From Escherichia coli (GTDB taxonomy: Bacteria > Pseudomonadota > Gammaproteobacteria > Enterobacterales > Enterobacteriaceae), in assembly GCF_003334765.1 (NCBI RefSeq), contig NZ_QOWT01000006.1: DNA of 64,000 nt. One strand, given 5' to 3'. Each line of letters opens with the position of its first letter. The first letter of the stretch is position 1. Shown in pieces: positions 29,813-47,026 of the stretch. The notes under the pieces were generated by a model. The model saw nothing but the letters and a program-made list of their open reading frames with translations. It was not told the origin of the DNA and searched no databases. The position numbers and the translations under genes are program-made.

Positions 29813-30343
29813 ATCGATAATACGCGCGTATAAGTTCACATCATCATAGGCATCATTCAGGAACTCAGCCTGTTTCAGGCAACCTTCAAGGATAAAACCA
29901 TTGCGCAAAGCGACCTGGTTGCTTTGCGGATTGTCCACCCGACATTTGATCACGAAGCGTCTAAGTTCACCAGACTGGGCGTAATGATGAATCAATGCCT
30001 GCAGCGCCTGAGAAATGATCCCCTGCCCCTGATGAGATTCGTCCAGCCAGTAGCCTATTTCAGCGGTTTTATTCAGTGGTTCAATACGATTAAACGAGAT
30101 AACGCCGATAAGTTCATCTTCTTTGAAAATCATGAACATTTTGGCATAGCCGCGTTGATGCAACATCACATTACCCTGCACCGTTTTTCGCGTGTCCTCT
30201 TCACTTTGAACAAACTGCGGCCAGTTTAGCGACTGCTGTAACCAGGTTTTATTTTTACAGATTAACTGATAAAGAGGTTTGACGTGATTTTCTGCAACAG
30301 CATGTAATTCAAGTGATTCGCTTACTTTTATCGTTTCAGTCAT
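29804..30343 (-). CDS. rimL: ribosomal protein L7/L12 serine N-acetyltransferase (GNAT)
   Basis: 179 codons from the internal ATG ([16 protein letters not shown]...); GNAT motifs. Confidence 0.85.
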
Positions 30344-35133: not shown

Positions 35134-35170
35134 AAGGTGAAGGGATCTGTCGATCCCTCCTTGAACATTT

Positions 35171-36811
35171 TCACACCGTAGCGAAACTAACTGGTTCACC
35201 CGCTCCGCGAGGTTCTGCCGACACAGAATGTTTGTGCAGACGGAATACATCCACCGCCTCAGTTAATCGTGCCGCCTGTTCTTCAAGGGACACCGCCGCC
35301 GCTGAGGCCTCTTCTACCAGAGAAGCATTCTGTTGCGTCACCTTATCCATTTCAGAAATCGCCTGGCTAACCTGCGTTATGCCTCTACTTTGTTCATCCG
35401 AGGCGGCGGCGATTTCCTGCATGATATGTGTGACACTCGCGACGGCATCAACAATAGTGCTCATGGTTTTCCCGGCCGTTGCCACCTCATCCGACCCCAG
35501 GTCAATTAACCTGACTGATTCACTGATCAAGCCTTCAATCTCTTTCGCCGCCTGAGCGCTGCGACTTGCGAGTGTCCGTACTTCGCTGGCGACAACGGCA
35601 AATCCACGCCCTTGCTCACCCGCTCGCGCGGCTTCAACGGCAGCATTCAGTGCCAGAATATTCGTCTGGAAAGCAATACTGTTGATGACGGCGGTGATCT
35701 CAGAAATTTTCTTCGAACTCGTGGAGATAGCGCCCATCGTTTTTACTACACCGGAAACCGTCTGCCCGCCATCGCTGGCTTTAATAGAAGCCTCTTGCGC
35801 CAGTTTGCTGGCATGATGCGCGTTATCCGCATTCTGTTTCACCGTCGCAGTGAGTTGCTCCATGCTGGCGGCAGTTTGTTCGATAGCCGCCGCTTGTTCT
35901 TCGGTGCGAGATGACAGGTCCGCATTGCCAGCTGAAATTTCGCTGGTGCCACGATAAATCTCTTCCGCGCCCTGTCGAACAGTCCCTACTGTCATCCCCA
36001 GTGAATGCTGCATTTGCTGTAAATGACGACTTAAGCGACCGATTTCATTACGACCCGCCGGTTCATCATTCATCGTCAGATCGCCACTGGCGATTTTTTC
36101 AATCCGTTGTGCGGCATGTTGCAGTGGACGAATGACGATCCGACGTAGCACCATAAATGTTATCAGCGTCATGACCAGGGCAAGCACAAACGCGCCAATC
36201 ATGAACATCCCACCCAGGCGGGTGCGCTGATGGGCCAGTTCCGCCAGTTGGTTGGCTCTGGTGCTACGTATCTTAACGGCTTTGTTCAAAATATCGGTAT
36301 AAGCATTATCCAGCGGTCGGATCTGCTCACTTTCATGATTGATAATCGCTTCAAACATGCCATTTTTGGCATATTTCAACATAGGTTGCATACCCGTGAT
36401 ATAAGCCTGAAAGCGTTGATTTAATTCAGTGTCGAGGGCTTCATCAGCAGGTGTTTTCACCGGTCGATTCTGATAAGCACGATAACCTTGCTGCGACTGT
36501 TTAATCTCCGATTCGGCTTGCGCAATATTTCGCTTCATTGCTTCCATTTCCGCAATACGACTCGCAGCCCCGGCCTGAATCATATTGATCCGGGCTGAAC
36601 GCAAAAAATCTGAACTGTTCGCTAACCCGGTCCGAATCTCAATCTCCGCAGTAACATCACGCTGATCGCGATCGGCCTGCCAGAGGAAATAGCCAGCCAG
36701 GGCTGAACTTAATGCGAATAGAACTAAGATACCGCCTAGAATGCAGGCAAATAACGGAACCAACCTGATGTGATGCAAAAAACCTAATCGCTGTGAGGGA
36801 GTTGTATTCAT
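35171..36811 (-). CDS. trg: methyl-accepting chemotaxis protein III (ribose/galactose sensor)
   Basis: 546-aa ORF with two TM segments, a HAMP domain and a conserved methyl-accepting signalling domain. Confidence 0.9.
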
Positions 36812-36850
36812 TACCGTTGTCTCTCGTCCAGGTTTACTCCTGATAGAAAG

Positions 36851-36877
36851 TCATCGGCACTTGACGGTAATTACTTA
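36851..36877 (-). promoter_or_regulatory. candidate sigma-28 (FliA) promoter of trg
   Basis: Minus-strand TAAGTAAT-N11-GCCGATGA against consensus TAAAGTTT-N11-GCCGATAA (-10 element 7 of 8), positioned about 40 nt upstream of the trg ATG. Confidence 0.4.
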
Positions 36878-37099
36878 TGACCAAAAACCTCTTTGCGTCA
36901 CATTTTTACAACAATTATTGCATAGAAAATTAATGCTATTGGAATGAAGAGAGTAACGAATGGCTAAACTGGCTAACCCGAATGACGAAAAATTCTGGAA
37001 AACAGCACGCAATTTCGTGAAGTGATTATTTTCGTCCCTAAGGAAACCTCATAGGATGCCTGCGGGTGCCTGAGACTTTCTGTTTTCAGGCTAACCGGG

Positions 37100-37151
37100 A
37101 ATCAGAAAGACGAAGGCCCCGACCGATATTTCTATCAACCGAGGCCAACGA

Positions 37152-37170
<19 letters not shown>
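37100..37170 (-). ncRNA. sokB: expected position of the Sok-type antisense RNA of the hokB locus (approximate)
   Basis: Inferred from hok/sok family architecture (antisense RNA overlapping the mok translation start). No promoter or terminator could be resolved confidently, so the coordinates are approximate. Confidence 0.25.
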
Positions 37171-37359
<189 letters not shown>

Positions 37360-37365
37360 GGGCAA

Positions 37366-37390
37366 GCGCGGGGATTTTCCCCGCGCATTT
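37366..37390 (+). terminator. hairpin gcgcgggg-atttt-ccccgcgc plus ATTT downstream of hokB
   Basis: Perfect 8-bp GC stem seen directly, 7 nt after the hokB stop. Confidence 0.5.
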
Positions 37391-37430
37391 GACTAGCAGA
37401 TTCATTTTCTCATGGCACCCCTTTTACACT

Positions 37431-37604
37431 TCAGTTAGTGCATGTTTTTTTCGATGCACTAATAGAACCATCATTACAGACAAATTTGCCGCCTGCCGTA
37501 CAGTGTGAGATCCCCCCTTTCGAACCAGAACAGGGTTTGCGCCCGGCATCGGCATAAAAGGAAACAAGCGTTCCCATAAACAAAATAAGTGCCAGTTTTT
37601 TCAT
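37431..37604 (-). CDS. ydcA: small secreted protein of unknown function (57 aa)
   Basis: ATG at 37604 with a GGAGG Shine-Dalgarno; encodes MKKLALILFMGTLVSFYADAGRKPCSGSKGG... (signal peptide, Cys-rich). Confidence 0.6.
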   Translation of the reverse strand: MKKLALILFMGTLVSFYADAGRKPCSGSKGGISHCTAGGKFVCNDGSISASKKTCTN

Positions 37605-37774: not shown

Positions 37775-37838
37775 CTTCCGATGTAGACCCGTATTCTTCG
37801 CCTGTACCACGGGTCGGTTTTAGTACAGGCGTTTTCTT
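37775..37838 (+). ncRNA. rydC: RydC-like Hfq-dependent small RNA (about 64 nt)
   Basis: TATAAT -10 at 37764-37769, then cuuccgauguagacccguauucuucgccuguaccacgggucgguuuuaguacaggcguuuucuu with a 9-bp terminator stem (cgcctgtac / gtacaggcg) and U-tract. Lies in the ydcA-cybB intergenic region, where I recall RydC mapping in K-12. Confidence 0.65.

Positions 37839-46411: not shown

Positions 46412-47026
<615 letters not shown>

Follow-up and report, generated by a model that had tools for sequence, protein, structure and literature searches.

The FliA (sigma-28) motif upstream of trg in Escherichia coli: correspondence with the published CRP-activated promoter and conservation of a non-consensus base in its -10 element

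The chemoreceptor gene trg has been recognised for years as a member of the FliA (sigma-28) regulon, and the timing of this regulon is set by FlgM, which holds FliA inactive until the hook-basal body is complete. The sequence consensus for sigma-28 promoters is TAAAGTTT-N11-GCCGATAA (quoted in PMC2859248), and the class 3 promoters of tar, motA, flgM, tsr and fliC share with the trg promoter the sigma factor, the two octamers, the 11-nt spacer, and the logic of the FlgM checkpoint. They differ from it in that they show no specific CRP binding and no direct CRP effect; at tsr, CRP does bind, but at a distant upstream position where it has no effect. Direct activation by CRP has been described for only two of the well-characterised sigma-28 promoters of E. 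coli, those of aer and trg, which also share the spacing between the CRP site and the promoter elements (PMC2859248). At aer, the transcript start was placed by primer extension at 6 bp past the -10 octamer, so that CRP is at -49.5 (PMC2859248). The trg promoter is already known in full: the region was cloned as trg100 by Hollands, Lee, Lloyd and Busby (Mol Microbiol 2010, PMC2859248), and its FliA motif, TAAGTAATTACCGTCAAGTGCCGATGAC, is listed in the ChIP-seq table of Fitzgerald, Bonocora and Wade (PLoS Genet 2014, PMC4183435).

Here, we compare with these systems a motif that lies upstream of trg in a 64,000-nucleotide stretch of E. coli DNA, which we refer to as the window. The first-pass annotation of this DNA had described a FliA-like motif on the minus strand, about 40 nt before the trg ATG, with 7 of 8 consensus bases in its -10 element. 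The location is exact (36877-36851), as there are 40 nt from the end of the -10 octamer to the A of the ATG (36811-36809) and the motif and trg are on the same strand, and a direct comparison with GCCGATAA gave the same count for the -10 element. The gene and the core promoter elements are as follows:

35171..36811, minus strand: trg coding sequence (methyl-accepting chemotaxis protein Trg, 546 aa), from the list of open reading frames, 100% identical to trg of MG1655
36851..36858, minus strand: -10 element GCCGATGA, 7 of 8 positions in agreement with GCCGATAA, CGA core intact
36859..36869, minus strand: spacer TACCGTCAAGT, 11 nt between the octamers, read from the sequence
36870..36877, minus strand: -35 element TAAGTAAT, 4 of 8 positions in agreement with TAAAGTTT, leading TAA kept

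The likeness to the FliA consensus, as it had been claimed, thus stands for the -10 element and for the 11-nt spacing, but is much poorer for the -35 element, a point that had been left unstated. The agreement of the -35 element is limited to TAA....T, and the sole non-consensus base of the -10 element is a G at position 7 (36852, minus strand), which makes 5 mismatches in all over the 16 consensus bases. A G at position 4 of the -35 element (in the consensus register) is also found in 4 of 24 strong FliA ChIP sites.

When the window was scanned with the consensus TAAAGTTT-N11-GCCGATAA at up to three mismatches, the trg site was not recovered, and the two sites that were returned, 18101-18127 (plus strand) and 46908-46934 (minus strand), correspond to a rate no better than that of shuffled sequences or chance. 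A weight-matrix scan with the FliA motif had been suggested in the first-pass annotation, and we carried it out with a matrix derived from 50 published ChIP-seq motifs of FliA, each 28 nt long (PMC4183435 Table 2), from which trg and ydcU were excluded because both lie inside the window. The trg site scored 14.7 bits and ranked second among the roughly 128,000 positions of the two strands of the window, and it took the 25th place among 52 published FliA sites in a leave-one-out ranking. With the leave-one-out matrix, the class 3 promoters score differently, at 18-26 bits (fliC at 12.9) compared with 14.7 for trg. In random windows generated by a first-order Markov model, 0.63 hits of at least 14.7 bits are expected per 64 kb, which corresponds to a chance rate of some 5e-6 per position and of roughly 0.002 over the 398 nt of the intergenic region, read in sense orientation. 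Three other hits in the window have scores comparable to that of the trg promoter (13.9-15.1 bits): one at 46934-46907 (minus strand) that lies antisense in azoR and has a perfect GCCGATAA, one at 21517-21490 (minus strand) in sense orientation in rlhA, and one at 30085-30112 (plus strand) antisense in rimL. None of these three has a peak in the published FliA ChIP-seq table (PMC4183435), and the motif score alone therefore does not predict binding. In its context, the trg motif goes beyond chance, but the sequence by itself is suggestive rather than decisive.

The three unbound sites of comparable score, together with a -35 match of just 4 of 8, are what could be brought forward for a chance resemblance, in which case trg would be transcribed from another promoter, either a sigma-70 promoter or by read-through from the sokB side, and the effect of FliA on trg would be indirect. 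A promoter scan of 36500-37500 found no sigma-70-like promoter in the intergenic region, and an alternative housekeeping promoter is therefore unsupported. More directly, published experiments bear on the question. The 28-mer listed for trg in the ChIP-seq study is exactly the sequence of bases 36877-36850, and the FliA peak at trg is 23-fold above threshold (PMC4183435 Table 2). The peak sits on the motif with the usual holoenzyme offset, its centre being displaced by 18 nt from that of the motif, in the downstream direction. The normalised trg RNA falls significantly in the fliA deletion, from 108 in motile MG1655 to 4, i.e., 27-fold (PMC4183435), and this is the outcome that had been predicted when trg expression in a fliA mutant was proposed as a test, which was thus already in the literature. 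With the trg100::lacZ fusion on a plasmid, expression was sigma-28-dependent, requiring the sigma factor in trans from a plasmid, and was activated by CRP (PMC2859248). A chance resemblance is effectively refuted by these ChIP-seq and reporter data, and we give it practically no weight.

The motif is thus almost certainly the known single FliA (sigma-28) promoter of trg, which is also directly activated by CRP, and the view of trg as a FliA-controlled flagellar and chemotaxis gene is borne out by binding, RNA and reporter data. The published trg100 fragment is marked with the same -35 element, -10 element and CRP site. Over 501 bases around the site, the sequence has 100% identity to that of E. 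coli K-12 MG1655, and the motif and the promoter described for K-12 (PMC2859248, PMC4183435) are the same object, with no difference. The text of trg100 in the supplement of the Hollands paper, as obtained by optical character recognition, contains extra bases (e.g., CATAAAGTAATT) and was not used for coordinates. In a Salmonella FliA paper, trg is mentioned solely in a strain genotype. The window contains a second published FliA ChIP-seq motif, GCTGGGAATAAACCATATTGCCGATAAA at 14622-14649 (plus strand), which is antisense inside ydcU; its peak is weak, at 3-fold above threshold, with no expression change reported (PMC4183435), and it scores only 8.8 bits with the leave-one-out matrix.

The CRP site, which had been absent from the first-pass account of the promoter, lies upstream of the -35 element, and with it the remaining features of the promoter region can be given:

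36884..36905, minus strand: CRP-cAMP site, the 22-mer AAATGTGACGCAAAGAGGTTTT, read from the sequence, with published CRP binding (PMC2859248)
36845, minus strand: predicted transcript start, the 6th base past the -10 octamer, by analogy with aer and from the identical spacing
36812..36844, minus strand: predicted 5' UTR, about 34 nt including the start base, derived from the predicted start

The left half of the CRP site is a perfect TGTGA, and the right half is very poor, with GAGGT vs TCACA. Only 13 of the 22 positions agree with the CRP consensus, and this could be taken to mean that the site is incidental and that CRP acts on trg indirectly, through flhDC and the level of FliA. Against this, CRP activation of trg::lacZ persists when sigma-28 is supplied from a plasmid independently of CRP (PMC2859248), and gel-shift assays in vitro show CRP binding to the trg fragment, with an affinity like that for aer (PMC2859248). 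Also, the spacing is identical to that of the experimentally dissected aer promoter. In an E. coli genome, the aer promoter reads AATTGCGATCTAAATCAAATTA (CRP site), ATCGGT, TAAAGATA (-35), 11 nt, and GCCGACAT (-10), and we checked directly that the order of a CRP 22-mer, 6 nt, the -35 octamer, 11 nt, and the -10 octamer is that found at trg.

The likeness of the two promoters goes further, as both drive a gene of the chemoreceptor type and both have a -10 element that departs from the consensus in its 3' half, GCCGACAT in the case of aer and GCCGATGA in the case of trg. They differ in the -35 element, since that of aer, TAAAGATA, is nearer to the consensus than TAAGTAAT of trg, and in the kind of evidence, since the start, the positions of the alpha-CTD and the effects of moving the CRP site are experimental at aer, and their equivalents at trg are read across by analogy. 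By this analogy, transcription of trg probably starts near 36845, and the centre of the CRP site would lie 49.5 bp upstream of this predicted start. For trg itself, no experimentally determined start came to light in our literature search. The predicted 5' UTR holds a GAGAG stretch that resembles a Shine-Dalgarno sequence, and AGAGAG before the ATG is conserved in the orthologues. Citrobacter and Enterobacter have a trg 5' UTR that exceeds that of E. coli by about 13 nt. A small hairpin, CAGG-agtaaa-CCTG, is found at 36841-36828 (minus strand), near the predicted 5' end, and has a positional counterpart, GCGUG-uuuu-CACGC, in other genera. As the hairpins of E. coli and of three orthologues are no more stable than shuffled controls, we dropped them as a feature.

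The gene that is read from this promoter encodes a protein that matches MCP family models. Its neighbours are the divergent hokB and the convergent ydcI, and it therefore looks like a single-gene unit. The motif had been taken to tie the region, otherwise regarded as metabolic, to motility control, and this applies to trg itself, but adds little for its surroundings, as trg appears to be transcribed alone. Just past the trg stop, in the 36-nt gap that separates the convergent trg and ydcI, we noted one further element:

35142..35157, minus strand: hairpin GGGATC-gaca-GATCCC, putative terminator, read from the sequence

This hairpin was not called by a terminator scan, because its tail is T-poor, and it may tentatively be regarded as a terminator that is possibly shared by trg and ydcI. 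Just upstream of the trg promoter region, two known K-12 features were matched by Rfam models, the hok/sok element of the hokB locus at 37064-37215 (plus strand, 109.7 bits) and the small RNA RydC at 37775-37838 (plus strand, 92.5 bits).

We then consider how far this promoter is kept outside of K-12. A scan with the Trg protein, with one genome per species, yielded 80 loci from about 30 genera, and the 200 nt upstream of each start of a trg orthologue were scored with the E. coli FliA matrix. The best hit reached at least 12 bits in 65 of the 80 loci and was usually 35-70 nt from the start, with best hits at about 130 nt in a few loci (Dickeya, Serratia), and a -10 element of the GCCGAT type is present in nearly all 80 loci, from Escherichia to Pantoea, Dickeya and Serratia. 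When 63 non-redundant orthologous promoters were aligned on the -10 element, GCCGATG was nearly invariant, TAA occupied the -35 register in 52 of them, and the spacer was constant in length and free in sequence, with about zero information per column. That the motif is conserved in about 30 genera while its flanks drift is a further argument against the chance resemblance considered above.

Conservation of the CRP site is looser. A TGNGA half-site is found at the CRP position, within 1 nt, in about 47 of the 63 promoters, and conservation in about three quarters of the orthologous promoters speaks against an incidental site. The precise position varies, and this variation is the other point in favour of an indirect CRP effect: the TGTGA is 1 nt farther from the -35 element in most genera other than Escherichia, and about 8 nt farther in Kluyvera (L030, L031, L039, L044, L045). 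As the TGTGA shifts among genera, the -49.5 geometry is not strictly fixed. Taken with the reporter and gel-shift data, we consider it very unlikely that the CRP site is incidental, and direct activation by CRP is the preferred reading.

Of 5426 complete E. coli genomes, 4490 carry the 99-nt trg promoter (36812-36910) with an identity of at least 90%, and in 3221 the identity is at least 99%. The other 936 complete genomes lack it. In a deletion described for phylogroup B2, mokB is lost together with the 5' part of trg, and what is left is the regulator Tls, a truncated Trg-like protein (PMC12623472). The 936 genomes without the promoter fit this published deletion, if they are presumed to belong to phylogroup B2.

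The alignment also shows that the non-consensus G, position 7 in the -10 element, has been retained by 58 of the 63 promoters; of 51 other FliA sites of E. coli, only 2 have a G there. In the structure of the Pseudomonas aeruginosa sigma-28 open complex, the octamer is numbered from G-15 to A-8, and melting begins at -11 (PMC12784957). With an octamer that spans -15 to -8 and melting from -11, the G of the trg promoter would fall at -9 and therefore inside the melted region. The structure paper describes -11, and no other position, as flipped (PMC12784957), and we can therefore only infer an effect of a G at -9.

From the published work and these observations, the following course of events is by far the most likely. 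Once freed, FliA directs RNA polymerase to the trg promoter, with domains 2 and 3 reading GCCGATGA, 11 nt downstream of the -35 element. As FlgM holds FliA back, trg is therefore made only in cells that are committed to flagella. The core promoter is sub-optimal, with a -35 element at 4 of 8 positions and a G in the melted part of the -10 element, and this weak core is helped by CRP-cAMP bound at AAATGTGACGCAAAGAGGTTTT and centred at -49.5, which adds a second requirement. Because of the CRP-cAMP requirement, the ribose and galactose receptor is made preferentially in flagellated cells when glucose is scarce. We infer that the CRP dependence results from the weakness of the core. A more far-reaching idea, which we regard as a possibility of somewhat less than even standing, is that the weakness of the trg core has been selected and is not accidental, in that a -10 element that is harder to melt and a weak -35 element together maintain CRP dependence across Enterobacterales and so form an AND gate.

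In summary, the significance of our analysis is small beyond the correct annotation of the promoter, and its main value is corrective: a motif match should not be taken as function unless it is accompanied by ChIP, expression or conservation evidence. What is added here to the published description of the trg promoter is a quantified matrix rank, a comparison of its spacing with that of aer, and a cross-genus survey of its conservation, and of these, the breadth of the conservation and the conserved non-consensus G are mildly new. If the weak core is indeed under selection, trg would have a deliberately sub-optimal sigma-28 promoter, whose gate would open when flagella are complete and carbon is poor, and the conserved G may offer a small lead on the way in which a promoter of an alternative sigma factor is made to depend on an activator.
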